Shown one piece after another: positions 5,898 through 49,931 of a stretch of DNA of 64,000 nt. The notes beneath the pieces are model-generated. The model searched no databases, was not told where the DNA came from, and worked only from the letters and a program-made list of their open reading frames with translations. Each line of letters starts with the position of its first letter. Position 1 is the stretch's first letter. A program made the translations under genes and the position numbers. This DNA is from an uncultured Poribacteria bacterium (GTDB taxonomy: Bacteria; Poribacteria; WGA-4E; WGA-3G): NCBI GenBank assembly GCA_958296135.2, contig CATQHZ020000001.1, positions 320,001-384,000 of the forward strand. Direction: 5' to 3'.

Positions 5898-6084
5898 CGT
5901 TTTTTCATCGTAGCGCGGGGGCCGTTACGCCGAAACGTTGTCATCTCTGCAGCCTCGCTGCAGAGATGTCCACTGTCCCCCGCGACACCTCAACCGCGTT
6001 TTTTCATCGTAGCGCGGGGGCCGTTACGCCGAAACGTTGTCATCTCTGCAGCCTCGCTGCAGAGATGTCCACTGTCCCCCGCGA
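5898..6084 (+). repeat. Two direct copies (99-bp period) of REP family A carrying the ~50-bp cargo hairpin
   Basis: GTAGCGCGGGGGCC-GTTACGCCGAAACGTTGTCATCTCTGCAGCCTCGCTGCAGAGATGTCCAC-TGTCCCCCGCG at 5910 and 6009. Confidence 0.9.
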
Positions 6085-6257
6085 GGCCACAACCGCTTAA
6101 ACGGTAGAAGAAACCTCCTAGTCCTGATACCTCATTTGACTTTTCTTTTCAAACGTGGTAGACTTAAAAATATTTTGACAACAAGATGCCGCGGCCGTGA
6201 GGGTTTACCGCGGTATCCCAATCGAAGCAGCACCCTCATTTTTTAAGGAGACTTTTC

Positions 6258-7472
6258 ATGAACTTTCAACAGAAAACCGAGAGAACCGCGCTGAGACGCA
6301 TCATGGCGTGCGGGCTTATCGCCTCATTTTTCCTTATGGGCATCGTGTTCTCCGCTTGTGAACGGGCAGAACAAATGATGGCACCCGCGGAAGAACCGAT
6401 GGTGACTCCCGAAGAGGCGGATACCATAGTCAAACTCGGTATGCTCTATTCATCACCTTTGCCGGGTACCACGCTGTCTGGCGCGGAATTAGCCGTCAGT
6501 GAGATAAATGCAGCAGGCGGTATCAACGGCATGTCGGTTGCGCTCATCGCGAAAGATGATACCAACGATACAGCAATGAGCGTGGCACTGGCAAACGAAC
6601 TGATTGCCGCGGGCGTAGCAGGCATCATCGGACCGGACTTTTCTGTGCATGCTTTTCAAGTTGGCCCGGTTGTCCAAGCCGCAGGCATCCCTATGATAAC
6701 GACGTATCCCACGAACCCTACCGTCCCCGACGCGGGTGACTTCGTGTTTATGGGCGCGTTCACCGATAACTACCAAGGCGAACTGATAGCCAAGTTTGCC
6801 GCTGAATCGCTGAGTGCCAAGAAAGCCGCCATCCTGACGCAAAGCGGCCTCGCCTACTCGGAAGGATTATCGCAATACTTTAAAGTCAGCCTCATGGCAT
6901 CGGGGGAAGGCGTTGAAGTGCTGCAAGTTTTCTACGATGAAAACGATACCGATTTCACAACGCAACTCACAGAAATTGCCGCGATGGAACCCGATGTCAT
7001 CTTTATACCCGACTTCGTGCCAATGGTGACGACAGCGATTCAGCAGGCAAGAGCAGCCGGCATCACTGCCACCTTCCTCGGCGGCGATGGATGGGATAAT
7101 CCACAACTGCTGGAAATGGGCGGCGACGCACTTGAAGGCAGCTTCTTCGTCAATCACTTCTCGGGACTGCTCGGAGCCGACCTCGGTGAAGATACAAGTC
7201 ACTTCGTAGCGGCTTACACGGAAAAGTATGGGATGGCACCGGATGGTCCCGCCTCGCTCGGATACGATGCCGTTCGGATAATGGTGCAGGCGATGCAGCG
7301 CGCTGGCGATATGAGTGGTGATGCCATTCGCGCCCAGGTCGCGGCAACGATGGACTACAGCGGCGCAACGCTGCTCTCCAAGTTTGACGAAAACCGCCAT
7401 GCGATTAAGAGTGGTGTCATCATTACTATTTCAGAGGGCGCGCTTCAGACACACCAGGTCATCGCACCGTAA
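6258..7472 (+). CDS. ABC transporter substrate-binding lipoprotein, LivJ/LivK (branched-chain amino acid) family
   Basis: Lipobox VFSAC; GAELAVSEINAAGGING; DFTTQLT; FLGGDGWD; LGYDAV. Confidence 0.9.
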   Translation: MNFQQKTERTALRRIMACGLIASFFLMGIVFSACERAEQMMAPAEEPMVTPEEADTIVKLGMLYSSPLPGTTLSGAELAVSEINAAGGINGMSVALIAKDDTNDTAMSVALANELIAAGVAGIIGPDFSVHAFQVGPVVQAAGIPMITTYPTNPTVPDAGDFVFMGAFTDNYQGELIAKFAAESLSAKKAAILTQSGLAYSEGLSQYFKVSLMASGEGVEVLQVFYDENDTDFTTQLTEIAAMEPDVIFIPDFVPMVTTAIQQARAAGITATFLGGDGWDNPQLLEMGGDALEGSFFVNHFSGLLGADLGEDTSHFVAAYTEKYGMAPDGPASLGYDAVRIMVQAMQRAGDMSGDAIRAQVAATMDYSGATLLSKFDENRHAIKSGVIITISEGALQTHQVIAP

Positions 7473-7486
7473 CCTCGCTTTCTGCT

Positions 7487-7517
7487 AGGCGGAGCATCCC
7501 TGTTCCGCCTCTTTTTT
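7487..7517 (+). terminator. Intrinsic terminator-like hairpin
   Basis: AGGCGGAGCA-TCCC-TGTTCCGCCT then CTTTTTT. Confidence 0.6.
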
Positions 7518-7620
7518 GATGCTTTTTCATAGGACTATGACACTCCTTGATGCAATCCGCACGAACATGACTTGTCCTTAGCAATAACATTTGTTTTCAA
7601 CCCCGAAATGGAGGATTCCA

Positions 7621-8853
7621 ATGAACTATCAACGAAACATGCCAGAGCGTGCGGTTATCCATCGTGTGACGGTTTACGGCGCGTTGGCATCGCTTTTTCT
7701 CATGTGCCTCATGTTTTCCGCGTGTGAGCGCATCCAACAAACTGTCGTCCCCGGTGAACAACCGACAGTTTCTCCTGGGGACAGTGACGAAACAATCAAG
7801 ATCGGCATGCTTTATTCCTTACCCGCCCCGGGAACGACGCTGTCTGGCGCGGAATTGGCCGTCAGCGAGTTCAACGCGGCAGGCGGCATCAACGGTGTGC
7901 CGATAACCCTCATCGCGAAGGATGATGGCAACGAACCGGAACGCAGTGCCGAATTGGCAAGAGAACTGATTGCTGAAGGCGTGATAGGCATCGTCGGGCC
8001 GGACTGGGATCCGCAGTCTTGGGCAGTAGGACCGCTCGCCCAAAGCGCGCAGATTCCCATGGTGACGACGTATCCCACCAACCCGAATAACCCCGATGCC
8101 GGTGACTTTGTGTTTATGAGTGCCTACACCGATAATTACCAAGGCGAATTGATTGCCAAGTTCGCGCTTGAATCGTTAGAGGCAACGACTGCTGCTATCC
8201 TGAGTGAGCAAAGCACGGCTTACACGGGAACCTACGCGGAAGCCCTTAGGGAGTTCTTCACGAACAACTTTACCGCGGGCGGCGGCACTATCGTCGCGCA
8301 GCAATTTTACGAAAAAGATGCTACCGATTTTACAACGCAATTGACAGCCATTGCCGCAGCATCACCCGATGTCGTCTTTGTGCCCGGCTTCATGCCGGAA
8401 GTCGCGCACGTCATTCAGCAAGGGAAAACGGCGCTCGGTATGACTGCAACCTTCCTCGGTGGCGATGGCTGGGATAACCCACAGTTGATTCCTGTCGGAG
8501 GCGCGGCATTGGAAGGAAGTTTCTTCGTCAATCACTTCGCAGCACAACCGGAGGCAAATCTGACACCGGAAGAGGCGCGTCAATTTGTGACGGCATATAC
8601 GGCAATGTTCGGGGTGCCGCCGGATGGTCCCGCGTCCTTGGGATATGATGCCGTTCGGATTCTCGCGCAGGCGATGCAACGCGCCGAAACCTTGACAGGC
8701 CCTGCCATTCGCGATGAAATCGCCGCAACGATGAACTACAGCGGCGCATCCACAATTGCCCGTTACGACGAAAACCGCTACGCGATTAAGAGCGGGGTTA
8801 TCAACACGATTACCGATGGTGTGATTCAGCTGCATCAAGTGATTACCCCTTGA
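7621..8853 (+). CDS. LivJ/LivK-family substrate-binding lipoprotein (paralog of 6258..7472)
   Basis: Lipobox MFSAC and the same family motifs; GGAGG RBS before ATG 7621. Confidence 0.9.
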   Translation: MNYQRNMPERAVIHRVTVYGALASLFLMCLMFSACERIQQTVVPGEQPTVSPGDSDETIKIGMLYSLPAPGTTLSGAELAVSEFNAAGGINGVPITLIAKDDGNEPERSAELARELIAEGVIGIVGPDWDPQSWAVGPLAQSAQIPMVTTYPTNPNNPDAGDFVFMSAYTDNYQGELIAKFALESLEATTAAILSEQSTAYTGTYAEALREFFTNNFTAGGGTIVAQQFYEKDATDFTTQLTAIAAASPDVVFVPGFMPEVAHVIQQGKTALGMTATFLGGDGWDNPQLIPVGGAALEGSFFVNHFAAQPEANLTPEEARQFVTAYTAMFGVPPDGPASLGYDAVRILAQAMQRAETLTGPAIRDEIAATMNYSGASTIARYDENRYAIKSGVINTITDGVIQLHQVITP

Positions 8854-8877
8854 TCGAAGGGACGCAGAACAAACACC

Positions 8878-8943: not shown

Positions 8944-9996
8944 ATGACAATAGGATTAGGCGTTATCGGAATGAATCCCACCAACATGGGTTCAACCGCA
9001 GCACTACTAAAAGATGTGCCAGACCTGGGATATGAACTCCGTGGTATCTGTGCAAAGCGCGCGGAAGTGCTGGAACCTTATGCGCAGCAACTCGGCATCG
9101 ATTTCTGGACGACAGATTACCGCGAACTCGTCCAGCGCGACGATATTGAGGTAATCGCTGTCTATTCCCCAGATCATCTGCACGCAGCGCATTGCATCGC
9201 CGCTATAGAGGCAGGGAAGCACGTCGTCTGCACCAAACCAATGGTGACAACGTTGGCAGACGCACAGCACCTCGTCGAACTGGTGCGGAAGCACAACATC
9301 AAGTTTCTCGTTGGACAGACGATGCGGTTTGACTTGCAATTTCTAACAATGAAGAAACTCTTTGATGACGGTGACCTGGGTGACATCATGGTGGCAGATG
9401 CCTACTATGTCCACGATATGCGCGAGGTTTACGATTTCACCCCGTGGCGGCTCCACGCACCGCAAGATCTGATGTTCGGCGGCGTGGTGCATCCCGTTGA
9501 CATTCTGCGCAGCTTCCTCGGCGATGTTGAGGAGGTGCATGCCTACGGGACGAAAGGCTCGCTCACGCCGGCATACCCGCTCAGGAACAATTTCTTCCTA
9601 AATCTCAAGTTTAAAAGTGGACAGATTGCACGCGCAATGGGGCTTTACGACATCGTCCACCCGCCGATGCCGATGATGCAGGTGTCTCTATACGGCAGCA
9701 AAGGCACGATGATAGGCGACTTTACCGATAACAAAGGTGGGCAAGTGAAATTGATGCTTGACAAAATGGCGGCGAGGGAGCCGTTTGAGATGACGTGCCC
9801 GCCGGAAGTGGACACGAGCGTGTATGGGCACGGACAAACGGTTATCCGATATATGCGCCATTTTCAGGAGTGTCTTGAGAGGGATTTAGCACCGTCGCCG
9901 GGTGTGGTTGATGGCGCGAAGTCCATCGCTGTCGGCGTAGCGGCGTGGGAATCCATTGAAACTGGGCAACCCGTGCCGGTCTTCAACGAATTTTAG
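8944..9996 (+). CDS. Gfo/Idh/MocA family oxidoreductase
   Basis: N-terminal Rossmann strand, SPDHLH, GKHVVCTKP, VHPVD motifs; alternative start GTG 8923. Confidence 0.9.
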   Translation: MTIGLGVIGMNPTNMGSTAALLKDVPDLGYELRGICAKRAEVLEPYAQQLGIDFWTTDYRELVQRDDIEVIAVYSPDHLHAAHCIAAIEAGKHVVCTKPMVTTLADAQHLVELVRKHNIKFLVGQTMRFDLQFLTMKKLFDDGDLGDIMVADAYYVHDMREVYDFTPWRLHAPQDLMFGGVVHPVDILRSFLGDVEEVHAYGTKGSLTPAYPLRNNFFLNLKFKSGQIARAMGLYDIVHPPMPMMQVSLYGSKGTMIGDFTDNKGGQVKLMLDKMAAREPFEMTCPPEVDTSVYGHGQTVIRYMRHFQECLERDLAPSPGVVDGAKSIAVGVAAWESIETGQPVPVFNEF

Positions 9997-10002
9997 AGGA
10001 AT

Positions 10003-10036
10003 AACGGGCCCACGCTGGCATTTGTGCGGGCCCGTT
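10003..10036. terminator. Hairpin between convergent genes
   Basis: AACGGGCCC...GGGCCCGTT inverted repeat. Confidence 0.5.
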
Positions 10037-10041
10037 CGCGG

Positions 10042-10676
10042 TTAGTCCTTCTTCTCAGCCGTGTCGGCGGGGTGCGGCGGTGCTGGGATAAATTTCCAGC
10101 CTTGCTTTTTCAACTCCGCCTCTTGCGCCTTCAGATGTTCAAAGTATTCTTCTTGGGTGCTGAATCGCGCCTGTTCCGCCCGCATTTCCGCACTAATCTT
10201 CCGCTTGATACGATAGCATTCCTCAAGGATGGGATCCGTGTAGGTGCCGGGCACTACGTCCGGGTGCAGGTGCTTATCAGGGGTTTCTTTCACGGTAAAT
10301 TCCTCCATAAGTGTTGTCGGCGTGCAGATAGCGAAATGGCGATATGGGCCGCGTCTGCTTCCAAATTGGGCGGGACAGCTCTTGCATCGCGCAACTTCTG
10401 ACTCAAATCATCAGCCGCCGGTGATTTTTCCAATACCGGTAGGCCCGCTAATGCTGCAAGCCGCTTCCCTGCCTCGGTTGGATTGCCAGCACTCACCTCG
10501 TTCACAACAACACGTGAAACGACAAACTCAAATCTCTCGGCATATTCTTGCCAGAACCGCTGCGTTGCCCGCTGCCACGCCGCTATTCGCGGATTGGCAC
10601 TCAGAAGTGCTACTAAGTAACTAATGACTGTCGTTTCAACGTAGACTCTCGGTTTTCTATCGCTATAGTTTCGCAC
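10042..10676 (-). pseudogene. PIN-domain (VapC-like) toxin with internal deletion and frameshift; the C-terminal frame runs into a small antitoxin-like domain (10042..10308)
   Basis: VYVETTVISYL...DAAHIAI in one frame; family C-terminal ICTP..LME in another frame continuing into TDPILEECYRIK; middle LLTWNxxH segment absent. Confidence 0.7.
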
Positions 10677-10770
10677 AAAACCCTTTCCTGTGAAAAAGTC
10701 AATCTGTCGCGTTCAAAATATCCCCTTCATTATACCCCATAAAAACCGAAAAGTCAACATTAAATTTTTC

Positions 10771-10817
10771 TTGACATTTAAGTTGATATAATGTATAATT
10801 TAGTCATACCTAAATTA
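10771..10817 (+). promoter_or_regulatory. Consensus sigma70 promoter overlapped by DtxR/MntR-type operator
   Basis: TTGACA 10771-10776, 17 nt, TATAAT 10794-10799; inverted repeat TAATTTAG-tcatac-CTAAATTA 10796-10817. Confidence 0.85.
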
Positions 10818-10881
10818 ATTTCTAAATGTCCCTAACAATCTTGGCAGGCAGTGCCTAAATTTTGGGGATACAGACGCAAAT

Positions 10882-11562
10882 GTGGAAATAGGAATGATGC
10901 TGACACACGCAGCTGAGGACTATCTCAAGTCCATCTATAAGTTACAAGAAAAGGGCAGTAAGGTGTCAACCGGCCTTTTAGCCGAGACGCTCAACGTTAA
11001 GCCCGCTTCAGCGACCGGCATGCTGAAAAAACTGAAGACGATGAAATTGGTGTGCCAAGAACGGTATCAGGAAATCACGCTGACTGCGGCAGGCGAGGCA
11101 ATCGCGCTGGAAATCATTCGGCACCACCGCTTGCTGGAGCTCTACCTGTTCAAGGCACTCGGTGTGCCGTGGGAGAGTGTGCATGAAGAAGCCGAGAAAC
11201 TGGAGCATGTCATTTCCGAAGATGTGGAAGAACGGATAGATGCCATCCTCGGCTATCCAACCGCCGACCCGCACGGCGCGCCGATACCCGATAAGAACGG
11301 CGTTGTTACGCGAACCGCTGACGCATCGATGACAACGCTTCGCAAAGGACAATCGTGCATTGTCGCCGAAGTCAGCGATACTGATTCAGCATTGCTACAA
11401 TATGTCGGCGAGTTGAACCTTTATCCCGGCACCGCCTTTCAGGTGCTTGATGTCGCCCCGTTTGAGGGGCCTTTTACCATTGACATCGCGGGACAGCAAG
11501 CTGTCATCGGACGCGAGGTCGCGAAGCACATTTTTGTCGCCGAAGTGCGGGAAGAAGGATAA
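10882..11562 (+). CDS. mntR: DtxR/MntR/TroR family metal-dependent repressor with FeoA-like C-terminal domain
   Basis: EDYLKSIY, RHHRLLELYL, VHEEAEKLEH, DPHGAPIP; start may be ATG 10894. Confidence 0.92.
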   Translation: MEIGMMLTHAAEDYLKSIYKLQEKGSKVSTGLLAETLNVKPASATGMLKKLKTMKLVCQERYQEITLTAAGEAIALEIIRHHRLLELYLFKALGVPWESVHEEAEKLEHVISEDVEERIDAILGYPTADPHGAPIPDKNGVVTRTADASMTTLRKGQSCIVAEVSDTDSALLQYVGELNLYPGTAFQVLDVAPFEGPFTIDIAGQQAVIGREVAKHIFVAEVREEG

Positions 11563-11565
11563 AAA

Positions 11566-12714
11566 ATGGAACGACACAACACTACCCCGACTACCCCGAC
11601 GGATAGCAAAACGCTCAAAACGTGGAAACACCACCTGCAGGATGAGGTAGATGCCAGGTTCCTTTACGAGGTTTTCACCGAACTTGAGCCAGATGCGAAG
11701 CGTAAAAAAATATTAGGCGGGTTAGCAGCCGTCGAAGACGAGCACGTCACCCGATGGCAGCAGCTGCTCGCTGTCTCTAACGTCAAGCATAAGCCGCCGC
11801 AACCGACAGTGAAGGCGCGGCTGATGGCGTGGTGCGCCCGCCGGTTTGGCGGCGAATTCTTCCTCGCGCAAATGCTGAACGCGGAAGCGGGGGAAGTCAA
11901 GGACTACCTAACGCTCCATAAAAACAGCACGCACTCAGGCGCGAAAGAGATGGCACTCGATCTGGCGAAAGAATCCGCCAAGCACACCGAAAGTCTGCAG
12001 GAACTGACCGGCACCAGCGAAGAACCGTGGCACAAAACCGAATCCGGCGGCATGGTAGGCAACGTTGTCTACGGCTTTAACGATGGGCTCACAGCGAACT
12101 TCGGCCTCGTCGCCGGCGTCATCGCCGCGACGCAGGATACCTCTATCATTCTCGTGACCGGCATCGTTGGCACCGTCGCCGACGCGCTCTCTATGGGCGC
12201 CTCCGGGTACCTCGCAGCGAAAAGCGAATTGGAGGTATACGAGCACGAGATTAAGGTTGAATATGATGAAATTTGCTTCATGCCGGACCTCGAGGAAGAC
12301 GAACTCGCGCTTATCTATGAGGCACGCGGCATCGCACCAGAGCCTGCACGAAACCTCGCGCGGGAAATCATGCAGGACCCCGAGCGGGCCCTCGCTGAAA
12401 AGATACAGTCGGAACTCAAGATAGGCGAAACATACACTACACCGTTCAAAGAAGGGTGGATCACCGGGTTAGCCACCGCCATAGGGGCTTTTATTCCAGT
12501 GGCTCCCTTCTTGTGGCTCTCCGGGACCCTCGCTGTCTGGCTCGCATTCGCGCTCGCCATGCTGTCGCACTTCGCTGTCGGCGGAACGCGAAGCCTGTTC
12601 ACCGGACGCGGCCTCATTCGGAGTGGGATTGACATGTTTGCCGTCGGCCTCGGTGTCGCAGGCGTAGGATACATCGTCGGGGCACTTTTAGAACACTTTT
12701 TCTTTGGAAATTAG
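11566..12714 (+). CDS. VIT1/CCC1 family Fe/Mn transporter with N-terminal ferritin/rubrerythrin-like domain
   Basis: ExxH motifs (EDEH, ESAKH) in N-domain; VYGFNDGL and ALSMGASGYL VIT1 motifs. Confidence 0.88.
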   Translation: MERHNTTPTTPTDSKTLKTWKHHLQDEVDARFLYEVFTELEPDAKRKKILGGLAAVEDEHVTRWQQLLAVSNVKHKPPQPTVKARLMAWCARRFGGEFFLAQMLNAEAGEVKDYLTLHKNSTHSGAKEMALDLAKESAKHTESLQELTGTSEEPWHKTESGGMVGNVVYGFNDGLTANFGLVAGVIAATQDTSIILVTGIVGTVADALSMGASGYLAAKSELEVYEHEIKVEYDEICFMPDLEEDELALIYEARGIAPEPARNLAREIMQDPERALAEKIQSELKIGETYTTPFKEGWITGLATAIGAFIPVAPFLWLSGTLAVWLAFALAMLSHFAVGGTRSLFTGRGLIRSGIDMFAVGLGVAGVGYIVGALLEHFFFGN

Positions 12715-12812
12715 GCGCACCCAGTAGGAGAGAGCTCCCAGTCTTGAGCCCGCGTGCATCAGAACCGGGCGGCACCTCCTACTGAATGCCTATAGCGAAA
12801 GGAACTAAGGCT

Positions 12813-13772
12813 ATGCAGCGAATAAACATCGTTTTAAGGCATTGCTTGATTGCACTAGGTATCATAGCCCTACTGACATGCATCGGCTGTGATGGAAAGA
12901 GACAGCCCGATGCCGCAATGGCAGGGCGGCTCCGCGTCGTCACGACAATCGGGATGATAACCGACATCGTCAAAAACGTCGGCGATGCGCATGTTGAAGT
13001 AACGGGACTGATGGGGCCCGGCGTAGATCCGCACCTTTACAAAGCCACCGCCGGCGACGTGGCACGTTTGGCATCCGCGAAACTCATTTTCTACAACGGG
13101 CTGCACCTTGAGTCAAAAATGGGCGAAATCCTCGCCAAGATGACTGGGAATACGAAAACCGTCGCTGTTACTGATGATGTCAACCGGGCGCGGCTCCTAA
13201 CGCCACCCGAATTTGAGGGACAATACGACCCGCACTTATGGTTTGACGTGACGCTGTGGATGAAAGCCGTGGAAAAGGTGCGCGACACCCTCACTGAAAT
13301 CGACCCGGGACATCAAGCCGACTACGAGGCGAACGCCGAACGTTACCTCGCCGAACTCGCCAAACTGCATCGGTATGTCAAAACGCAGGCGGAGAAAGTA
13401 CCGCCGGAACAACGCGTGCTTGTAACGGCGCACGATGCTTTTAATTACTTCGGGAATGCCTACGGATTTGAGGTGCGCGGACTACAAGGCATTAGCACGG
13501 CAACCGAGGCTGGCATCGCAGACGTTCAAGAGTTGGCAACCTTTATCGCCGAGCGGCGTATCCCAGCAATCTTTGTGGAATCCTCAGTCTCTTCACGGAG
13601 CATTGAAGCGGTGAAAGCCGCTGTCAAATCGAGAGGGTTCAACGTTGAAATCGGGGGAGAACTTTTCTCAGATGCGATGGGCACCGAAGGGACTCCCGAA
13701 GGTACTTATATCGGCATGGTGCAGCACAATATCGATACAATTGTCACCGCATTGACAGCAGTGCAACCGTAA
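12813..13772 (+). CDS. troA: Mn/Zn/Fe ABC transporter substrate-binding lipoprotein
   Basis: Lipobox CIGC; GPGVDPHLY, YDPHLWFD, TAHDAFNYF, LFSDAMG. Confidence 0.92.
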   Translation: MQRINIVLRHCLIALGIIALLTCIGCDGKRQPDAAMAGRLRVVTTIGMITDIVKNVGDAHVEVTGLMGPGVDPHLYKATAGDVARLASAKLIFYNGLHLESKMGEILAKMTGNTKTVAVTDDVNRARLLTPPEFEGQYDPHLWFDVTLWMKAVEKVRDTLTEIDPGHQADYEANAERYLAELAKLHRYVKTQAEKVPPEQRVLVTAHDAFNYFGNAYGFEVRGLQGISTATEAGIADVQELATFIAERRIPAIFVESSVSSRSIEAVKAAVKSRGFNVEIGGELFSDAMGTEGTPEGTYIGMVQHNIDTIVTALTAVQP

Positions 13773-13893
13773 AAAACGCCACGCCAGCACGTAGGGCGAG
13801 GGCCTGTCTCTTGATGTCTCACATGAAAATACACTTCGGCGCGTAGCGCGAGGCCCTGTCCCTCGCGCTCTAATACTCAGAGGAGGAGCCGGC

Positions 13894-14634
13894 GTGAATA
13901 CTCTCGAAACGAAAGCCATTGAGGTAACCGACCTCACCGTCGCATATCAGGAAAAACCGGTCTTGTGGGATGTCGATCTGGACGTGCCCCCCGGCGTGCT
14001 GCTAGCAATCGTCGGCCCCAACGGTGCCGGCAAAACGACGCTGATTAAGGCGATTTTGGGACTTGTCCGCCCCGCCGCGGGGCGCGTCTTAATTTACGAG
14101 AAACCTTATCCCGCGCAACGGCGAATTGTCGGATATGTCCCGCAACGCGGCAGTGTCGACTGGGATTTTCCCACCAATGTCCTAGATGTCGTGATGATGG
14201 GACGTTACGGCAATTTGGGCTGGATCCGGCGACCGGGGAAGGCGGAACGTGAACTCGCGATGAACGCACTAGAAAAAGTCGGCATGCAGGCGTATGCAGA
14301 AAGGCAGATAAGCCAACTCTCCGGCGGACAGCAGCAGCGCGTCTTCCTCGCCCGCGCCCTCGTCCAAGATGCCACCGTCTATTTCATGGACGAACCGTTC
14401 CAAGGAGTTGACGCAACGACAGAACGCGCAATCGTGGCACTGCTGCAAGAGCTCCGGGCGAACGGCAAAACAGTCGTCGTCGTGCATCATGATCTTCAGA
14501 CTGTCACAGACTATTTTGACTGGGTGATGCTCTTAAACATCCATCGCATTGCCAGCGGACCGGTTGAAGAAACGTTCACCTCGGACAATTTACGCCAGAC
14601 ATACGGCGGACGCGTCGCTTTCATGAAAAATTAA
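13894..14634 (+). CDS. troB: Metal ABC transporter ATP-binding protein
   Basis: [32 protein letters not shown]. Confidence 0.95.
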
Positions 14635-14648
14635 GAATCCTTCGTCAC

Positions 14649-14695
14649 GTAGCGCAAGAGCCCAGCGAGCACGAATCGCCGAGAGTTTCGCTCGC
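14649..14695 (+). repeat. REP family A variant carrying cargo type 2
   Basis: GTAGCGCAAGAGC-CCAGCGAGCACGAATCGCCGAGAGTTTC-GCTCGC; similar to 25855-25902 and reverse 28076-28109. Confidence 0.65.
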
Positions 14696-14708
14696 AATCG
14701 TTCAACCT

Positions 14709-15698
14709 ATGAAAACGCTCATACCTTTTAATTACACACTCATAGTTGTCGCCATCGGTTCGGCACTGCTCGGTATCATCAGCGGCGCGCTCGGCACTTA
14801 CGCCGTTTTGCGGCGGCAGAGCCTCCTCGGCGATGCTATCTCGCACGCCGCACTGCCCGGCATCGCCATCGCATTTTTGCTCACCGGCAGCAAAACGCCG
14901 CTGATTCTAGTGCTCGGTGCCGCTCTGGCCGGATGGCTCGGCACACTGCTGATTTTAAGCATCATCAAACTCACCCGCATCAAATACGACAGCGCGCTCG
15001 CGCTCGTGCTCTCCACCTTTTTCGGATGCGGGTTAGTCCTGCACACCCTCATTCAGCGGACCGGCAATGCGAATCAGGCGGGGCTAGATACGTTCCTCTT
15101 CGGGCAAGCCGCTTCGCTTCTGGAACGCGATGTGCTGACGATGGGCATCCTCGGCGGTATCGCGCTTCTCATCATGTCTCTCTTTTGGAAAGAGTTGAAA
15201 CTGCTCGTTTTTGATGAGGCGTTCGCGACATCGATCGGCTTGCCGGTCCGCGCCCTCGATATTCTACTGACGAGTCTCTTAACCGTCGCCATTGTCCTCG
15301 GTTTACAAGCGGTAGGTGCTGTGCTGATGAGCGCGATGTTAGTTGCCCCTGCTGTTGCGGCGCGGCAATGGACAGACCGGCTCGCGCACATGGTGCTTCT
15401 CGCCGCGCTCTTTGGTGCAATCGCCGGGGTGAGCGGAACGGTTATCAGTAGCAGTGCCTCACGCATCCCAACCGGGCCAACTATCGTGCTATGTGCAACA
15501 GTCATCGTCGGATTCTCCATCGCACTTGCACCGAACCGAGGGCTGGTGTGGCACTGGGTGCGGCAGAGAAAAAATAAGGCGAGGATGCAACGGCATGGTA
15601 AGACAACCTTCACCGCGCAAGAGAAACTCGCCGAACGCCTCGCGACAGACAGAAAATTGTTGGAAAGTCCTCAGCGTGAAGGGGATTTGGAGGCATAA
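14709..15698 (+). CDS. troC: Metal ABC transporter permease
   Basis: LRRQSLLGDAISHAALPG; FLFGQA; PTGPTIV. Confidence 0.92.
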   Translation: MKTLIPFNYTLIVVAIGSALLGIISGALGTYAVLRRQSLLGDAISHAALPGIAIAFLLTGSKTPLILVLGAALAGWLGTLLILSIIKLTRIKYDSALALVLSTFFGCGLVLHTLIQRTGNANQAGLDTFLFGQAASLLERDVLTMGILGGIALLIMSLFWKELKLLVFDEAFATSIGLPVRALDILLTSLLTVAIVLGLQAVGAVLMSAMLVAPAVAARQWTDRLAHMVLLAALFGAIAGVSGTVISSSASRIPTGPTIVLCATVIVGFSIALAPNRGLVWHWVRQRKNKARMQRHGKTTFTAQEKLAERLATDRKLLESPQREGDLEA

Positions 15699-15752
15699 AG
15701 GCTGCGGACAGATATAGAAATCTGTCCTTACAATTACTGTGCGGGGAATACT

Positions 15753-16862
15753 ATGGCAATCCATCAACTTGAAATCCAACTCATCGCGATTGTTGTCGCC
15801 GTGGCTTGTGCCTTGCCCGGCGTATTCCTCGTCCTCCGCAGGATGACGCTGATGAGCGACGCGATTAGCCACGCAATCCTCCCAGGCATCGTGCTCGCCT
15901 TCTTTCTCACAGAAAGCCTCTCGTCACCGCTCCTCATTCTGGCAGCGGCCGGCACCGGGGTCCTCACCGTCCTTGTCGTTGAACTGCTACAACGGACGAA
16001 ACTGGTAAAAGCGGACGCAGCGATAGGGTTGACATTCCCCGCGCTTTTCAGCATCGGCGTTATCCTCATTTCGCGGTTCGCCGGCAACGTGCATCTTGAT
16101 ATGGATGCCGTGCTACTCGGCGAACTCGCGTATGCGCATTTAAACCGATTAGAGGTTTTTGGCATCAATCTGGGCCCCGTATCCCTCTACGTCATGGGCA
16201 CGATTTTGGTGCTGAACCTCACCTTTATTCTCCTCTTTTACAAGGAACTGAAAGTCGCCACGTTTGATGCGAGTTTGGCTGCCTCGCTCGGTTTCGCGCC
16301 CGCGCTCATTCACTACGGGTTGATGACGTTGGTATCCATCACGACGGTGGGCGCGTTTGACGCAGTCGGCTCCATCTTAGTCGTCGCGTTGATTGCCGGC
16401 CCGCCTGCAACTGCGTATCTGATAACAGACAGTCTTGCGCGGATGCTCATCCTGAGTGCTATCCTCGGCAGCGTGAACGCTGTCAGCGGCTACTGGCTCG
16501 CGCACCTCTTCGATGTCTCCATTGCCGGCGCGATTGCGACGACGACGCTGCTCATGTTCGGCATCATATTTTTGGGTGTGCCCGAGCGCGGGGTTATCGC
16601 CATTGCACGCCGCCGACACCGCCAGAAGTTGGAATTTGCACAGACGATGCTCGTCATCCATCTCCTCAATCACGAAGGTTTGCCAGAAGCCGCGCAGGAA
16701 TCACAGGTATCTCATCTTCAGGAACATCTACGGTGGGAGGGGCAGTTCGCCGCCCAAATCGTGAGATACGCTTTAGAGAATCGCTGCGTATCCCAAGCGA
16801 ATGGGCAATTGGCCTTGACAGCGCGCGGGCGGGGTATTGCCCAGGAGGCACTCGTTCAATAA
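15753..16862 (+). CDS. troD: Metal ABC transporter permease with soluble C-terminal extension
   Basis: LRRMTLMSDAISHAILPG; HLDMDAVLLGE; ~80-aa soluble tail ending LTARGR. Confidence 0.9.
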   Translation: MAIHQLEIQLIAIVVAVACALPGVFLVLRRMTLMSDAISHAILPGIVLAFFLTESLSSPLLILAAAGTGVLTVLVVELLQRTKLVKADAAIGLTFPALFSIGVILISRFAGNVHLDMDAVLLGELAYAHLNRLEVFGINLGPVSLYVMGTILVLNLTFILLFYKELKVATFDASLAASLGFAPALIHYGLMTLVSITTVGAFDAVGSILVVALIAGPPATAYLITDSLARMLILSAILGSVNAVSGYWLAHLFDVSIAGAIATTTLLMFGIIFLGVPERGVIAIARRRHRQKLEFAQTMLVIHLLNHEGLPEAAQESQVSHLQEHLRWEGQFAAQIVRYALENRCVSQANGQLALTARGRGIAQEALVQ

Positions 16863-17321
16863 AACCAAATTAGGCTGACCAGGATGCGTCGCCCACCAGC
16901 AGCGCGAACCTGAAATAAGTAGCGCGTAACTGCACTTTTTTGCCCACAAAAAACTTGTATTAAAATGTGCGTTTTGGTATGCTATGAGATGGGTGAATTC
17001 AGAAGGAATTGCACTGCAGTGTGTTACAGCGTTCCGCGCCATCCACGAGATGAAGCCCTCAGGAAACGCATGGACATGCTCTCGGAAAAATCTACCTAAA
17101 TCCAATGTTGCGGAAAAAATAATGCAAGGATACCTGTCTTGACAAAGATCACGTCTATCAAGACAGGCGAGCTGCGTTGTCAGACCGACTGACTACCGTG
17201 CAGGCAGTTTGCAAAAGACGTGACCGTTGTCAGATTGCCAAACCACTGTGAAGATGGTCTGGTAGGGAAACGTCATTAAACCAGCAGCACCTCGCCGAAC
17301 GCATTGCGAACGACAAAAAAT

Positions 17322-18452
17322 ATGAAAAACTACCGTATTGCAATCATTGGCCTCGGCGGCATGGGAAAGGCGCATGCCGAGGCAGTAGAATTAGAGGAAA
17401 ATTGTGAACTCGTCGCCGGGGCAGAGATTGATCTGGGGCGCGCGGCAGCGTGGGGAAAACGCTTCAATGTCACAGCCCTCTATGACGATTACGAGAAAAT
17501 GCTTGATGAGCAACACTCCGACATTGTCATTGTCCCAACGCAGGCACCGATGCACTACGCACCGACGATAGCGGCGGCACAGCGCGGCATCCACGTTTTC
17601 TGTGAAAAGCCGATTGCGTTGAACCTTATTGAGGCGGACGAGATGGTTGAAACCTGCGCCCGGCACAGCGTCAAGTTCGCCATTAACCACATCAAACGCG
17701 CCAGTCCCTACAATCGGCATGTCCTGTCGCTGATCGACAGCGGGGACATCGGCGACGTAGTCCTGCTGAAGGCGACAGACAAAGGCGGCAGGAAGGTTGG
17801 CAATTCGCTGATGGAGATGGGCACGCATCTCTACGATTGGGTACGGCTCTTCGGCGGCGATGTGGAGTGGGCACACGCGCACCTCGTTCAGATGGACGGC
17901 CGCGAGTCAACCGTTGACGACATTAAACATACCCAAGAAGTGCATCCGCACGACAGAGATGCAGGAATTGTGCTTGGCGAACGCGGACACGCCGCCTTCC
18001 GCTTCAAAAACGGCATCCATGCGGATGTCCAATACCTCGCGCAGCCGCAGACGAACGATAACGGCTACGGCATCGATATCATCGGTACCGAAGGACGCAT
18101 CGCTGTCCGAGAGAGCGTCGGCACGACGATGTTTATCCATCGCGGACAACACAAAACACCGGCAGATGCGTGGGAACCGGTGCATCTACCCGCGGAAGAC
18201 TTGGACGCGCACGGCAATCCGCGAGATAACGCATCGGTGCGGCTGTTATTGCAACGCCTAATGCTCCGAGATCTGATTGAAGCCATTGAGGCAGACCGGG
18301 AGCCGTTCGCAAGCGGCAGGGATGGACGGGATTGTCTTGAGATGATTCATGCGACGTGGGAGTCGCATCGTCGGCAGGCACGGGTGTATCTGCCGTTAAC
18401 GTCGCGCGAACATCCGCTTGAACGGTGGCAGAGAGAGGCGGGTGAAGTGTAA
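17322..18452 (+). CDS. Gfo/Idh/MocA family oxidoreductase
   Basis: IAIIGLGGMG, HVFCEKP, MGTHLYD. Confidence 0.9.
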   Translation: MKNYRIAIIGLGGMGKAHAEAVELEENCELVAGAEIDLGRAAAWGKRFNVTALYDDYEKMLDEQHSDIVIVPTQAPMHYAPTIAAAQRGIHVFCEKPIALNLIEADEMVETCARHSVKFAINHIKRASPYNRHVLSLIDSGDIGDVVLLKATDKGGRKVGNSLMEMGTHLYDWVRLFGGDVEWAHAHLVQMDGRESTVDDIKHTQEVHPHDRDAGIVLGERGHAAFRFKNGIHADVQYLAQPQTNDNGYGIDIIGTEGRIAVRESVGTTMFIHRGQHKTPADAWEPVHLPAEDLDAHGNPRDNASVRLLLQRLMLRDLIEAIEADREPFASGRDGRDCLEMIHATWESHRRQARVYLPLTSREHPLERWQREAGEV

Positions 18453-18754
18453 AGTTCCAAGCGACTGAGTTCTCAAGACCTTGGTATTCGGGGTGTCCCT
18501 GCCGCCCCCTAGTGATTCTGGTTGCCGCCTTGACTACTCACACCGAATTGCTGGCAGACGCGTACAACTTGGCAATTCGCATCTTCCTGATCCCCCAGGG
18601 CATCGGATATCTGATTATTGGCGTGGAAACGTATACAGAATTTGGTGAATAATCGCGGTTACCATAGAAAAGGTGACGCACATGCAGAATACACGCATTT
18701 CTGATGAGGAGGGTTTGCCGAGCGCACCAGCAAACTCAGCTACAGGAGATAACG

Positions 18755-19630
18755 ATGAACGCAAAATCAATCGCGCGGCGTTTTGGATTGAGCACGGACG
18801 AACTTTCACAGTGGAACGAGAACGGTTACCTCGTCCGCTTGGATGTATTCACCGCTGAAGAGAACGATGCACTCCGTCAAGTCGCTGAAAACATTGTCGA
18901 TGGAAAACGCCCGTTTCCATCCGCACATATCGATCAGAACGCACTTGTGAAAGACGGGAAAGTGGAGGAGGCAGGCATCTACGCAATGCACAAGATTCAT
19001 CATCCGAGTTGTTACTGCCCAGAATTCCTCGCCCGTGTGCGAGACCCGCGGCTAACGGACCCGCTCGTCGATCTGCTTGGACCCGATATCCTCGGCATCA
19101 ACAATCTATTTATCTGGAAAGCTCCCAAGATTGGCCTCGGCTTCCCATGGCATCAAGACAAGTTCTACTTCCGTAGCCGATTTAAGACTGATACGACTAT
19201 CGGGACGTGGACTGCTATTGACGCGGCAGACCGGGAGAACGGCTGTCTCTATGTTATCCCCGGCAGCCACAAAGGCCATATTTTTCAGCACGATAACCTT
19301 GATGGCCCACAACAACAGGAGTTCAAACTCGCTCGCGGGGTCCGCGACGAAGACGGTGTTGCAGTAGAAGTGCCGCCCGGCGCGGTAATCTGGTTCCACA
19401 GTCACCTCCTGCATAAAAGCATGGACAACCACAGCCTGCGATTTCGCCGCAGCTACGTCTCCCATTACCTCAGTGCACACGCAGAATGGGCACGGCCTCC
19501 ATCGGAGAGGGGTCGAGGCCAACCTGTCATGTGGATTCGCGGTGAGACTTTCCACGACAAGATCCACGAAGTTGAACGCGACGTACTCGTTCCTGAATCC
19601 GAAGGAAAAATGGAACTTCGTCCAACTTGA
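18755..19630 (+). CDS. Phytanoyl-CoA dioxygenase (PhyH) family Fe(II)/2OG oxygenase
   Basis: PWHQD (HxD), ENGCLYVIPGSH, LLHKS..N...RR; AGGAG RBS before 18755. Confidence 0.92.
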   Translation: MNAKSIARRFGLSTDELSQWNENGYLVRLDVFTAEENDALRQVAENIVDGKRPFPSAHIDQNALVKDGKVEEAGIYAMHKIHHPSCYCPEFLARVRDPRLTDPLVDLLGPDILGINNLFIWKAPKIGLGFPWHQDKFYFRSRFKTDTTIGTWTAIDAADRENGCLYVIPGSHKGHIFQHDNLDGPQQQEFKLARGVRDEDGVAVEVPPGAVIWFHSHLLHKSMDNHSLRFRRSYVSHYLSAHAEWARPPSERGRGQPVMWIRGETFHDKIHEVERDVLVPESEGKMELRPT

Positions 19631-19797
19631 TTTCACGGTAAGAAAGCATAATCGCGCTACAGCCTGCACAACTGCAGGACATGTCTCAAAACCAACCCCG
19701 TACGGTTTGAAACCGCACCTGCCGGATTTTTTTATTTCTCACTATCCTTTTTAGCCTGAGATGACTCTATATAACAGAACAAACGCAAAACGAGCCC

Positions 19798-19967: not shown

Positions 19968-20013
19968 CAACGCGCGTCCAGGGAACAACGAATTTGCGTC
20001 AACCTAAAGGAAA

Positions 20014-21633: not shown

Positions 21634-21704
21634 ACAAAAGTTTATAGGAAAGCACCCTTCCGATAAAACCCCGTTAGGGATGCAATGTTTATAGGAGAAA
21701 AATC

Positions 21705-22220: not shown

Positions 22221-22245
22221 GTCTCTTTTTCAACAAGGATCAGAT

Positions 22246-25522: not shown

Positions 25523-25541
25523 CGAAATCTTCCTATTTCTC

Positions 25542-26389
25542 GTCGCGCGAGGGCCGTTACGCCGAAACGTTGTCATCTCTGCAGCCTCGTTGCAGAGATG
25601 TCCACTGTCCCCCGCAATCCCTGCAAGCGTTACCGTAGCGCGAGGGCCGTTACGCCGAAACGTTGTCATATCTGCAGCCTCGTTGCAGAGATGTCCACTG
25701 TCCCTCGTGGGCACCCAACCTAAACGAAAAACAGCCCCGGAACCGTCGCGCGAGGGCCGTTACGCCGAAACGTTGTCATCTCTGCAGCCTCGTTGCAGAG
25801 ATGTCCACTGTCCCTCGCGAGTCCTTGGACCGAACGAAGAACCTCCCTTGAACCGTAGCGCGAGGGCCCGGCGATCGCTAATCGCCGAGGGTTCCCCTCG
25901 CGATCTCCCGACTAAACGAAAAACGTCCGCAGCCCCCGGGTTTCGGTCTTGTCTGCGACGATCGATGGATGGCGAGGCACAGGACCTCGCCCTACGGTTT
26001 GAGAGGCATTTTTAGTCCCCGTCGCGCGAAGGCCTGTCCCCCGCAATCCCTGCAAGTGTTACCGTAGCGCGGTGGCCTGTCCCTCGCGAGCCCTCAACCT
26101 AAACGAAGAACCTCCCTTGAACCGTAGCGCGAGGGCCTGTCCCTCGCGATCTCCCGACCTGAACGAAAAACCTCCCTTGAACCGTAGCGCGAGGGCCTGT
26201 CCCTCGCGATCTCCCGACCTGAACGAAGAACCTCCCTTGAACCGTAGCGCGAGGGCCTGTCCCTCGCGATCTCCCGACCTGAACGAAGAACCTCCCTTGA
26301 ACCGTAGCGCGAGGGCCTGTCTCCCGCGATGCTGTTTCTGTCTGAATTCAGACAGACATAGGATTGCGCGGTTTCCAACCGCGCCTACG
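25542..26389. repeat. BIME-like mosaic array of about 11 family A REP units plus one family B; includes four 60-bp tandem units (26102-26329)
   Basis: Units at 25542, 25635, 25745 (cargo 1), 25855 (cargo 2), ~25970 reverse, 26021, 26064, 26124, 26184, 26244, 26304. Confidence 0.92.
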
Positions 26390-28028: not shown

Positions 28029-28161
28029 GCTTTCTCCCTCTTGTCAAACACATCGAAAAACTTAGCATCGAGAACGGCGATGAAACCCTCGGCGATTCGT
28101 GCTCGCCGGATGACGAGAATACCCTTCCAAATCATCAATCCCGCTCGCCGAACGCTTCGCG

Positions 28162-36119: not shown

Positions 36120-36388
36120 CTGCGTTATTTATCACGTGATATGATTGACGCAAAATTGGATTTTGCGGGGAAGCGCGCTTTGATGAAGTTTTCGTATGAA
36201 ATCGGACAATTTTTCCGGTGGGCATGCAGCAACTGTACGCCTGTCGTGCCGAATTGTAACGGCGGATTTCTATATCCGCCCATCGGTTGGAATTACCCGT
36301 TTATTTTTTAATCTTCATCAAGCGCGCCCGGTGCTGGCGCGGTTCAAAACCGCGCCTACCGGATAAGCAAAACGAATAGGAGCGAATT

Positions 36389-43552: not shown

Positions 43553-43610
43553 ACTATCTACCTCATTAACCGTAGGGCGAGGGCCAGGGGAAATCGAAAG
43601 GAGAACACTC

Positions 43611-45998: not shown

Positions 45999-46089
45999 TC
46001 ATCTCATTGAGCCATGATGCGATAACGCCCTTGGAACGTAGGACGGGGCTGTCCTCCGCCATGCTGTGGTTTGCTCATGCATCAACATT

Positions 46090-46311
46090 GCGAGGGACAG
46101 TGGACATCTCTGCAGCGAGGCGGCAGAGATGACAAAGTTAAAGTAAGTAAGGTAGCGTGTTTACGCGGGGCGACACACGCACATTTTCTGTAGACGTGAC
46201 CGTGTTTACGCGGGGCGACACACGCACATTTTCTGTAGACGTGACCGTGTTTACGCGGGGCGACACACGCACATTTTCTGTAGGCGTGACCGTGACGGCC
46301 CTCGCGCTACG
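46090..46311 (-). repeat. Cargo-1 REP A interrupted by three tandem 45-bp units (46156-46290)
   Basis: Flanks GCGAGGGACAGTGGACATCTCTGCAGCGAGG and GGCCCTCGCGCTAC; unit CGTGTTTACGCGGGGCGACACACGCACATTTTCTGTAG(A/G)CGTGAC. Confidence 0.9.
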
Positions 46312-48637: not shown

Positions 48638-48666
48638 TTGACATTTCCACACATTTTGTGTATAAT
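48638..48666 (+). promoter_or_regulatory. Consensus sigma70 promoter
   Basis: TTGACA-17-TATAAT. Confidence 0.8.
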
Positions 48667-48712
48667 TAATGTTATCTATACTACTTCACATGAGGTGAAA
48701 GGAATCTCTCCT

Positions 48713-49333
48713 ATGAAAAAGCATTGGTCGAAACCCTTTATCCTATCTTCTGGAAAGCCTCGTGGCGTTCAACCTAAATTCAGAGAAGTTGAACTCACCA
48801 GGAAAGGATTTGACAAATTGTGCTACATGGGGCCATGCCCATGGTGGAGAAAAACAGACCCTGAAGACAAATTTCTGATGGATTTGTGCTACTCTCCGAT
48901 AAAAGAGGTCGCCGAAAAAGTAATTGAGGCATCAAAAGTTAACCGTCAGCACGTCCCATGTCCTCACAAGGTTTTCACGAACCTGCCAATGCGAGCTAGC
49001 ACGGATCGCGAGGATGGGAGGAAAGAAGAACATCCTTGGTTCAGTCGACATGCCAAATTGTGCTCTGGGTTCAATAGAGAACTCATGGGGCACATTTGGA
49101 TTCGTAATTTATCAGAGGCAATCCCTGCTGAGAACAAAGAAGAGTGTTCCTTCTACTTGGAAGATGGCAATCACAGAGCACTCGTTTACGCGGTGCTGAT
49201 TGCCTTGGGGAAAGAAGTTTACCAACCTGTTAAAGCGTTACACGCAACAACATGGGATTTTGATATTCTCAGTCACCCCACTGAGCGTCAACAGAATTTA
49301 GTTGATGATGGCGAGCTGCCTGAAAATGACTAA
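48713..49333 (+). CDS. Hypothetical protein with ParB/Srx-like DGNHR motif
   Basis: FYLEDGNHRALVYA; AAAGGA RBS; AT-richer than flanks. Confidence 0.6.
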   Translation: MKKHWSKPFILSSGKPRGVQPKFREVELTRKGFDKLCYMGPCPWWRKTDPEDKFLMDLCYSPIKEVAEKVIEASKVNRQHVPCPHKVFTNLPMRASTDREDGRKEEHPWFSRHAKLCSGFNRELMGHIWIRNLSEAIPAENKEECSFYLEDGNHRALVYAVLIALGKEVYQPVKALHATTWDFDILSHPTERQQNLVDDGELPEND

Positions 49334-49464
49334 ATTCATTGTACTTGTGCTGAAGTGGCGCGAGATTCGGATCGCGCACAGCAGAGGGAAAAGAAAGTAG
49401 GTGCCGTGCAGGATACACGCCCCACGTCTCTAAAAACTGGTGACTAACCTATCCCGCAACAACC

Positions 49465-49497
49465 ACGGGCGATGGATAACCATCCATCGCCCGTTTT
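49465..49497 (+). terminator. Intrinsic terminator
   Basis: ACGGGCGATGGAT-AACC-ATCCATCGCCCGT-TTT. Confidence 0.7.
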
Positions 49498-49772
49498 CAA
49501 ATTTCAAAGCGAATTGAGTTGATTAGCGTGTGAAGTTGCACCGTTTTCCTAAAGCGAAATTTCTTACGGTAGGAGCGACTTCCCTGTTGCGACATCACGG
49601 CCTTCGCTGTCGGAAGACTGCTTCTACCGGGAAGTCTACTATAGTGCTTGCCCTACAGACGCGGACAATTCAAATGAATTTCGTATAAGATGCCTCAGCG
49701 CGATTCCAATACTCCCAGTAACCCCTAATCTTGGAAATCTTGGAAATCCTGCTAATCCTGATTCAGACAAAT

Positions 49773-49931
49773 GGGATTACCGAAGCATGGCGAGGGACAG
49801 ACACTGCTGCCGCGCTGCGGTGGCTTCGGCGGCGTTCACAGGGATTACCGAAGCATGGCGAGGGACAGTGGACATCTCTGCAGCGAAGCTGCAGAGATGA
49901 CAGCGTTTCGGCGTAACGGCCCTCGCCCTAC
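49773..49931 (-). repeat. Two REP A-derived units sharing a 28-bp flank but with different cargo
   Basis: GGGATTACCGAAGCATGGCGAGGGACAG at 49773 and 49841. Confidence 0.8.

Follow-up and report, generated by a model that had tools for sequence, protein, structure and literature searches.

Hairpin-forming modules are gained at one loop position of a genus-restricted GTAG repeat family in a poribacterial genome

The 64,000-nt stretch analyzed here (the window; positions 320001–384000 of contig C1 of G000, an uncultured Poribacteria genome assembled to 5.19 Mb in 4 contigs and 94.7% complete) contains numerous copies of a repetitive extragenic palindromic (REP) sequence, several of which carry additional DNA modules, termed cassettes, in the loop of their hairpin. 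The consensus of this REP is GTAGCGCGAGGGCC|TGTCCCTCGCG, where the bar denotes the loop position of the modules. In the consensus, the tetranucleotide GTAG directly precedes the palindrome on its 5′ side, with GTCG and other tags in the minority. The left arm GTAGCGCGAGGGCC is matched 22 times in the window at up to 2 mismatches, compared to 0.75 matches expected from shuffled sequences. Likewise, the core of the more elaborate module, cassette A, is found seven times in the window as opposed to no expected match in shuffles. These seven copies are located exactly where an initial reading of the sequence alone (the sequence-only reading) had placed them, at positions 5910, 6009, 25542, 25635 and 25745 and, on the reverse strand, at 46090 and 49857.

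The first cassette-A copy (5910..5984, + strand) is a REP of the GGGGG/CCCCC arm type with a 50-nt module, whose inner hairpin of 11–12 bp is positioned at a junction closed by the REP stem (−25.3 kcal/mol, z −6.3). A second A-filled REP (6009..6083, +) lies in tandem to it with a period of 99 nt. Three further copies are clustered at 25542..25616 (+), where the host REP carries a GTCG tag, 25635..25709 (+), which was also folded, and 25745..25819 (+). All three share a private CCTCGT loop variant, to which the second adds one extra change, and the third is surrounded by unrelated flanks. The copy at 49857..49931 (−) resides in a REP of the GGGCG..CGCC arm type. The module in the REP at 46089..46310 (−) exceeds the proposed size of about 50 bp; it measures 197 nt and consists of GTCACG, three internal 45-nt units, CTTA repeats and the common 3′ hairpin part. 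The second module, cassette B, had been assigned three copies. One of these is canonical, a REP at 25855..25902 (+) whose hairpin is lengthened by 23 nt of B (−19.2 kcal/mol versus −10.8 kcal/mol for the empty unit); the copy at 14649..14696 (+) is decayed, and the reverse-strand copy at 28086..28108 (−) is a rare exception in which an intact B core is found without recognizable REP arms. A supposed third cassette at 49800..49838 (−) occurs once in the whole genome and is a degenerate REP-like stretch that belongs to no cassette family. Empty REPs close to the cluster of A-filled copies include a doublet at 26021..26088 (+), which is paralogous to the nearby A-filled doublet at 25542–25709 and shares with it a linker found at only these two places in the genome, and four REPs in a 60-nt tandem array at 26124..26328 (+).

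Across the genome, 1598 left arms were identified, every one of them on contig C1. Joining each left arm to the next right arm, with variation at loop positions 2–3 tolerated, yielded 711 empty copies, 190 copies with any form of A (A50 126, A99 19, A148 8, A197 6, others fewer) and 190 copies with any form of B (B23 157, B27 26). A loop extended by four bases (AAAACC type, scored as “AACC”) is present in 42 copies and further short loop variants in 23; 102 copies were classified as “other,” and the 340 copies in which no right arm was recognized are mostly empty REPs whose right arm has diverged. Counting junction words instead gave 230 places for GGGCC followed by A, 183 for GGGCC followed by B, 92 for the empty AAAACC loop, 76 for AAAACC followed by B and none for AAAACC followed by A. 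Moreover, 251 B cores were found at up to 3 mismatches, nearly all of them preceded by a REP left arm. Depending on the method, the totals therefore amount to about 190–230 for A and about 190–250 for B, and loop modules of 23–197 nt are present in between roughly one quarter and one third of the REP copies. The REPs occur in arrays, with a period of 60 nt, and in doublets. According to crude open reading frame (ORF) calls, 460/711 empty, 149/190 A and 154/190 B copies lie between genes; the proportion assigned to genes is overstated, as spurious ORFs run across the REP arrays. As a side observation, contig C2, with 143,886 bases and a G+C content of 36.8% versus 54.4% for the chromosome, harbors no REP left arm and may be a plasmid, or derive from another organism or from contamination.

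The position of the modules is highly constrained. Cassette A lies between GGGCC and TGTCCC, and the corresponding empty form is exact, with a junction ambiguity of 1 nt and without a target duplication. The right arm begins directly after the 3′ end of A in 206 of 215 cases, and no reversed copies of A or B were found genome-wide in G000. Loops of the GGTCC or TGTGCC type are found in 100 of the 711 empty REPs, but in 0/190 A and 0/190 B copies. The modules are thus limited to REPs with a GGGCC|TGTCCC loop, where they occupy one invariant position in one orientation. These counts, together with the 230 places at which A follows GGGCC, corroborate the fixed insertion point expected from the sequence-only reading. 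The accompanying idea of cassettes simply inserted at one loop position has to be modified for B, which shares the invariant junctions but is no pure insertion, since it also exchanges TGT of the loop for TT(C/T).

As single-stranded DNA, the empty unit folds into a GC stem of 8 bp and a loop of 5 nt (CCTGT; −10.8 kcal/mol, z −4.3), and the stem is perfect in 405 of the 711 empty copies. The modules alter this hairpin in two ways. Cassette B (23 nt in G000; −19.2 kcal/mol) and a third module, cassette C of the sister species (29 nt; −21.4 kcal/mol), lengthen the REP stem into a single long hairpin of roughly 17–19 bp. Cassette C comprises 28–29 nt, occupies the same loop position as A and B with a right junction of TT(T), and exhibits a compensatory G-C/C-G change in its stem. 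Cassette A instead folds at about −25 kcal/mol into a junction with a side hairpin. All forms of A begin with 5′ GTYACG and end with a 40-nt 3′ part, which includes an 11-bp hairpin and the terminal TCCAC; at positions 22/42, a compensatory change from C-G to A-T is observed. The long forms, with lengths of 99, 103, 148, 152 and 197 nt, contain one to three tandem 45-nt units and a CTTA microsatellite. The middle of A50 is short and unlike that of the long forms, and A50 looks like a deletion derivative. Both A and the 45-nt unit start with GTCACG, which resembles the REP tag GTAGCG, and a few copies contain further hairpin-forming inserts in A’s own hairpin loop. The single strong hairpin of A lies near its 3′ end, the 5′ part forming only a weak 4-bp helix. 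Paired subterminal hairpins, the mark of PATE-like elements derived from IS200/IS605, are therefore not present in cassette A. Inspection by eye, without computation, revealed no convincing complementarity around the A hairpin of the kind seen in the guide/cleavage-site pairing of IS608.

Evidence for the gain of cassettes in place comes from recently duplicated sites. Among 1156 REPs compared by their 35-nt flanks on either side, 188 pairs differ by at most 5 mismatches in each flank (random pair rate 0.0002). Most of these pairs are empty/empty (146), followed by A/A (11), A/empty (9), empty/short-loop variant (7), B/B (5), A/B (5), B/empty (2), B/short-loop variant (2) and short-loop/short-loop (1). 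The pairs C1:4018029 versus 4017808 and 4473056 versus 4473306 are identical over roughly 100–120 nt per side and are separated by an exact 50-nt indel, and the REPs at C1 982238 (A99) and 982048 (B23) share their flanks but carry different loop modules. Otherwise identical, recently duplicated sites within the genome can hence differ by exactly cassette A, a polymorphism that supports the sequence-only reading.

The window itself provides the most detailed case. The A,A doublet (25530–25750) and the empty doublet (26009–26128) match at 101/120 positions outside two exact 50-nt gaps, and both feature the unusual tag GTCG, CCCCCGCA as right arm and a linker of 21 nt that is absent elsewhere in the genome. 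The three A copies at 25542–25819 differ from each other at only 0–1 of 50 nt and share the CCTCGT variant private to this array, although the flanks of the third host REP (25745) are unrelated to those of the first two. Since the local A copies are nearly identical while the doublet duplication has diverged by 16%, the A copies of this array are much younger than the duplication (2% versus 16% divergence). Taken together, the exact 50-nt indels in duplicates and the private A variants in unrelated flanks show that the cassettes entered pre-existing REPs, whose outer arms were not replaced.

Once present, the modules spread locally. Of the A50 pairs at distances below 2 kb, 33% are identical, compared to 3.6% of distant pairs, and the difference persists among pairs with dissimilar flanks (32% versus 3.5%). 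Neighboring modules of one kind are also strongly co-oriented: at distances below 1 kb, A/A neighbors have the same orientation in 53 cases and the opposite orientation in 1 (98% same), and B/B neighbors in 42 and 3 (93%). The corresponding numbers are 319 and 130 (71%) for empty/empty, 56 and 26 (68%) for A/B, 136 and 78 (64%) for A/empty, and 88 and 82 (52%) for B/empty. Of the 53 co-oriented A/A pairs, 30 have dissimilar flanks and are not tandem duplicates. Modules are thus shown to spread preferentially to nearby co-oriented REPs, independent of outer arms and flanks. At the same time, with loci counted as separate when they are over 2 kb from each other, A occupies 137 of them and B 118, and whole filled units must therefore disperse as well.

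In addition, filled and empty REPs differ in their distribution between the strands. The GTAG strand coincides with the locally C-rich strand in 59% of the empty copies, as compared to 77% for A and 80% for B (Fisher tests versus empty: A 5e-5, B 8e-7). Relative to flanking genes, no orientation bias was detected for A (52 versus 47) or B (48 versus 48) in tandem gene contexts based on the crude gene calls. The GC skew of C1 is irregular, with positive values confined to about 0.4–1.6 Mb and values below or close to zero in the rest of the contig, and genes are not co-oriented with it (1413 versus 1371, crude calls). This profile suggests rearrangements or an unusual replication layout.

The REP family is confined to one genus. 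At up to 2 mismatches, the empty 25-mer has 478 matches in G000, 750 in G001 and 3625 in G002, the latter two being sister species of the same genus, and none in the 28 further genomes searched from the same family or order. The core of cassette A has no match in G001, G002, G003 or G006, and B is matched once in G001 and not at all in G002. Of the 274 REPs contained in a 340-kb sample of G002, 228 are empty and 27 carry cassette C. In G001, C is present in at least 6 of the first 100 matches listed, and no copy exists in G000. The variants of C in the G002 sample follow the arm type, with exceptions. Every lineage thus has its own loop modules on a common REP. A scan of metagenome contigs from JGI for the core of A yielded no match, and the five matches to a 19-nt junction word are all due to chance and lack REP arms.

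Between G000 and its two sister species, the genes of the window (22229–44884) are syntenic and 81–89% identical. The REP arrays, on the other hand, vary across the three genomes at each intergenic site, both in how many REPs are present and in which kinds, and a one-to-one orthologous comparison is therefore precluded. At window positions 43572–43585, for example, G000 retains a truncated REP half, whereas the corresponding site on G001:C168 has one complete REP and that of G002 a 750-bp array of alternating REPs, which illustrates the fast turnover of REPs at fixed hot spots. One gene of the window (26397–28028, −), located within a REP-array intergenic region, encodes an AAA ATPase of 543 aa with a PD-(D/E)XK_9 domain at its C terminus; it is missing at the orthologous site of G002, and its family is represented by dozens of 67–75% identical DNA copies in G001 and G002. 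For a 197-aa ORF (29726–30319, −), the similarity to Type ISP restriction enzymes is limited to their C-terminal specificity domain, and the stretch that holds it is a 920-bp intergenic region in G000, is reduced to 31 bp in G002 and comprises six REPs in G001.

REPs of the GTAG type are associated with REP-associated tyrosine transposases (RAYTs), and the sequence-only reading had proposed a link to a RAYT or to an insertion sequence (IS) of the IS110 family. Two Y1_Tnp genes are present in G000, at loci L001 and L002. The L002 ORF (181 aa, C1:4791065–4791610, reverse strand; L002 1411–1956) is preceded by REPs of the family described here (family 1), including three A-filled and one B-filled copy, and followed by REPs of family 3 (GTAGGGCGCGGTCC...), an interspersed family with 284 empty copies and one copy with a 50-nt insert. 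It scores 29.8 bits against the Pfam model Y1_Tnp (cut-off 23), REP_Tyr_transpos is the NCBIfam model that it matches best (E 1.5e-15), and PDB entry 4ER8 is matched weakly (E 0.029). The RAYT relatives found in other genome contigs are all distant (28–51% over parts) and belong to metagenome-assembled genomes of Acidobacteriota and Bacteroidota. The gene can be described as divergent and RAYT-like. The L001 ORF reaches 125 bits for REP_Tyr_transpos, and its adjoining REP differs (GTAGGAGAGACCTCC).

Of the Y1 genes in G002, one is flanked by yet another REP family and one is a broken IS605 tnpA. Further GTAG-tagged REP families indeed coexist with family 1, namely GTAGGAGAGACCTCC around the L001 RAYT, GTAGGGCGCGGTCCTGTGC, and GTAGGCGCGGTT..AACCGCGC (window 26355–26390 and 36350–36385; L001; L056), and the RAYT of G002 is surrounded by the GTAG-tagged REP TGTAGTTCGGGAGC.. 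as well. The proposed RAYT link is supported by position, in that a RAYT-like gene is flanked by these REPs. The IS110 alternative is not supported, as the IS110 DEDD transposase (PF01548) has no match in the 94.7% complete genome. TnpB (Cas12f1-like_TNB, PF07282) has 34 matches in G000, one of them in the window (54438–54641, −), in elements of about 1.47 kb that represent several IS families. The element ends at these 34 loci are unrelated to cassette A, and no pair of A ends in G000 encloses a gene within 8 kb, as a longer autonomous version would. Together with the lack of an IS110 transposase, this speaks against filled REPs being simply the ends of a known IS. As an aside, the only two Y1 genes of G000 are both RAYT-like rather than IS200 TnpA, beside 34 copies of TnpB.

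The family is best explained as genus-restricted, RAYT-associated GTAG REP hairpins whose loop is a permissive site for hairpin-forming modules. How the modules move is less certain. Tentatively, and at slightly less than an even chance, we infer that they are transferred by template switching between co-oriented REPs during replication. A nascent strand would stall at a REP hairpin and switch its template to another co-oriented REP, where the identical inner stem would serve as a landing pad; it would then copy the loop of the second REP and return to the first template, such that the whole loop is swapped precisely. Dispersal across the genome would follow from the ordinary RAYT-driven and duplication-driven spread of REP units that carry modules. 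Template switching is favored because whole loops are swapped, as seen in the replacement of TGT by TT(C/T) in B and in the A/B exchanges between identical flanks, because matching inner stems are needed, because the spread is local and co-oriented, and because it requires no dedicated element.

Several points weigh against this reading. Its weak point is that template switching must use 5–6 nt of shared inner stem, so that frequent events would have to rely on very little homology. The global strand bias would suit a strand-specific single-stranded DNA (ssDNA) transposase equally well, and it bears on replication only under the assumption that skew reflects replication direction, with the skew of G000 being irregular. 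Direct empty/filled polymorphism at an orthologous site was not found, as arrays turn over among the three species. Among 8 public read runs that contain part of the stretch (none recorded as RNA), contigs from four were compared with window positions 9000–28999; these end at REP arrays (e.g., 25570, 26295), so that no empty/filled polymorphism is readable, and the other runs represent relatives that are about 88–90% alike. The RAYT-like L002 gene scores 57 bits for REP_Tyr_transpos, under the curated NCBIfam cut-off of 80, and no homologue was found in G001 or G002 even though both carry the REP; the link of the family to a RAYT is therefore positional only. Finally, three common polymorphisms of A, which are 11–25 nt apart, are in linkage equilibrium with each other, a finding which neither template switching nor transposition explains easily, and the compensated arm haplotypes that bear A and B, three or four in number, have similar frequencies among filled and empty REPs (p=0.09 for a difference).

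The conserved ends and variable middle of A are typical of a non-autonomous transposon, and it has to be considered that the cassettes, or at least A, are tiny non-autonomous ssDNA transposons which enter the single-stranded loop (GGCC^TGTCC) exposed when a REP hairpin extrudes from one of the template strands, mobilized in trans by a Y1/HUH enzyme, either a RAYT or a lost transposase. Repeated targeting of loops would then account for the nesting of REP, A and the 45-nt units or the inserts in the hairpin loop of A. We regard this as possible but rather unlikely. The invariant junctions and orientation, the exact empty form without target duplication, the termini of A (5′ GTYACG and the 40-nt 3′ part with its 11-bp hairpin) and the start GTCACG of A and its 45-nt unit, so similar to the REP tag GTAGCG, all speak for such an element, as do the gain in place that is more recent than the flanks and the two Y1 genes of the genome. 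Skew-related strand bias and co-oriented local copies are likewise what ssDNA transposition by an HUH enzyme would be expected to produce; elements of the IS200/IS605 family are reported to target the template of the lagging strand (PMC6006769). Yet A has a single strong hairpin instead of one at each end as in IS200/IS605-type elements, its ends lead to no autonomous copy within 8 kb and to no matching TnpB IS end, and B replaces the loop rather than being inserted into it. In addition, a study on group-3 TnpA-REP enzymes acting on perfect palindromes indicates that loop bases are needed for activity, and filled REPs may therefore not be recognized as RAYT substrates (PMC8266576). The absence of A from four related genomes and of any true copy from the JGI contigs scanned also argues against a mobile element.

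A third possibility, which appears quite improbable, is that no movement takes place at the level of the cassette: A, B and empty REPs would be subfamilies of one origin each, comparable to the Y, Z1 and Z2 REPs of Escherichia coli or to GTAG-14 of Bradyrhizobium with its long loops, that were amplified as whole units, and discordant paralogues would reflect rare precise deletions. Whole-unit dispersal must occur given the many separate loci of A and B, the variants of cassette C mostly follow the arm type, and B on the AAAACC background, where A is never found, resembles an amplified subfamily (76 copies versus 92 empty). Published GTAG REP families with alternative loops, self-complementary to 27 bp and of species-dependent abundance, provide a precedent (Di Nocera et al., 2013, PMC3733652). 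Against subfamilies as the sole explanation, arms and cassette variants are in linkage equilibrium, and the sharing of arm haplotypes with empty REPs points in the same direction. Nearly identical A copies with differing arms and flanks next to a paralogous doublet that has diverged by 16%, as well as the A/B exchanges between identical flanks, are difficult to reconcile with this view, and exact loss by slippage is unlikely with only 1 nt of microhomology flanking A. Selection at the RNA level, with the modules as helices of 3′ untranslated region stem-loops or small RNAs and no process acting on DNA, is highly improbable. The folds are stable and a few compensatory changes preserve inner stems (A positions 22/42; cassette C), but orientation tracks GC skew and not genes, and no Rfam family reaches its gathering score in the window, the best match of an array having E 0.99 in a search to E 1.

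What the sequence-only reading had called tiny non-autonomous elements or cassette capture is thus read here preferably as template switching, with transposition as the main rival; the cassettes themselves are discrete, polymorphic between duplicated sites and lineage-specific. If pressed further, the cassettes might be regarded as hyperparasites of a domesticated repeat, that is, as minimal gene-less, single-hairpin ssDNA elements which insert into extruded REP loops on one replication template strand, are nested up to three levels and form an own set in each species, a proposal that we consider doubtful. If true, it would define a class of loop-targeting mobile DNA smaller than any transposable element described. 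If the cassettes prove to be mobile themselves, no smaller or simpler loop-targeting element would have been described, and they would also offer a natural scaffold for site-specific insertion into DNA hairpins. Template switching, in turn, would turn the genome into an in vivo record of copy-choice between dispersed microhomologies. REPs are among the most common non-coding repeats of bacteria, and their diversification and spread are poorly understood. Here, the loop of one REP family acts as a docking site at which modules appear, are swapped and spread to co-oriented neighbors in a strand-asymmetric manner, and hundreds of such natural events in a single genome bear on whether REP dynamics are shaped by an ssDNA transposase or by template switching at hairpins.

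The closest known systems are the REPtrons, which comprise REP, BIME or REPIN repeats and a RAYT (TnpA-REP). Shared features are the GTAG tag in front of a short GC-rich palindrome, copy numbers from the hundreds into the thousands within one genus, their arrangement in arrays and doublets, and a Y1 gene flanked by repeats. In contrast, the REPs of G000 possess lineage-specific loop modules gained in place, and the Y1 protein encoded between them is divergent. REP-targeting IS elements were reportedly described by Tobes and Pareja in 2006. Such elements (of the IS110 family and others, e.g., ISPpu9) use the REP as a specific insertion target, as is the case here. The inserts in G000, however, are 23–197 nt long and non-coding, in a genome without an IS110 transposase. 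Very small mobile repeats termed SDR are said to have been found in cyanobacteria by Elhai and colleagues in 2008, with precise insertion, often into one another and in hairpin contexts. They involve other organisms and other sequences, and we know of no link between them and a RAYT or GTAG repeats.

The BOX repeats of Streptococcus pneumoniae (boxA-boxBn-boxC) are modular with a variable number of internal modules, and repeats inserted in repeats are documented in the same study (Croucher et al., 2011, PMC3049150). The 45-nt units of cassette A behave like boxB in this respect. Unlike the cassettes, BOX, RUP and SPRITE resemble miniature inverted-repeat transposable elements, with inverted repeats at their termini and duplicated target sites; none of them is a GTAG REP or is directed to a fixed loop. 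A good match to cassettes B and C is provided by GTAG-3 of enterobacteria and GTAG-14 of Bradyrhizobium, for which the available text describes short and long self-complementary loops (to 27 bp) on one stem family, in proportions that vary by species (Di Nocera et al., 2013, PMC3733652). Compared with what that text covers, the asymmetric module of 50–197 nt with tandem units, the gain in place, the co-oriented spread and the strand bias are features of the present system. The initial statement that no description was known thus proved too strong for B-type loops. In the literature searched, supplements aside, no description was found of an asymmetric, internally repetitive REP-loop module, of its gain in place and co-oriented local spread, or of a strand asymmetry between filled and empty copies. 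Long alternative loops such as B and C are of an already known kind, and the A system and its dynamics represent a new variation on this kind.

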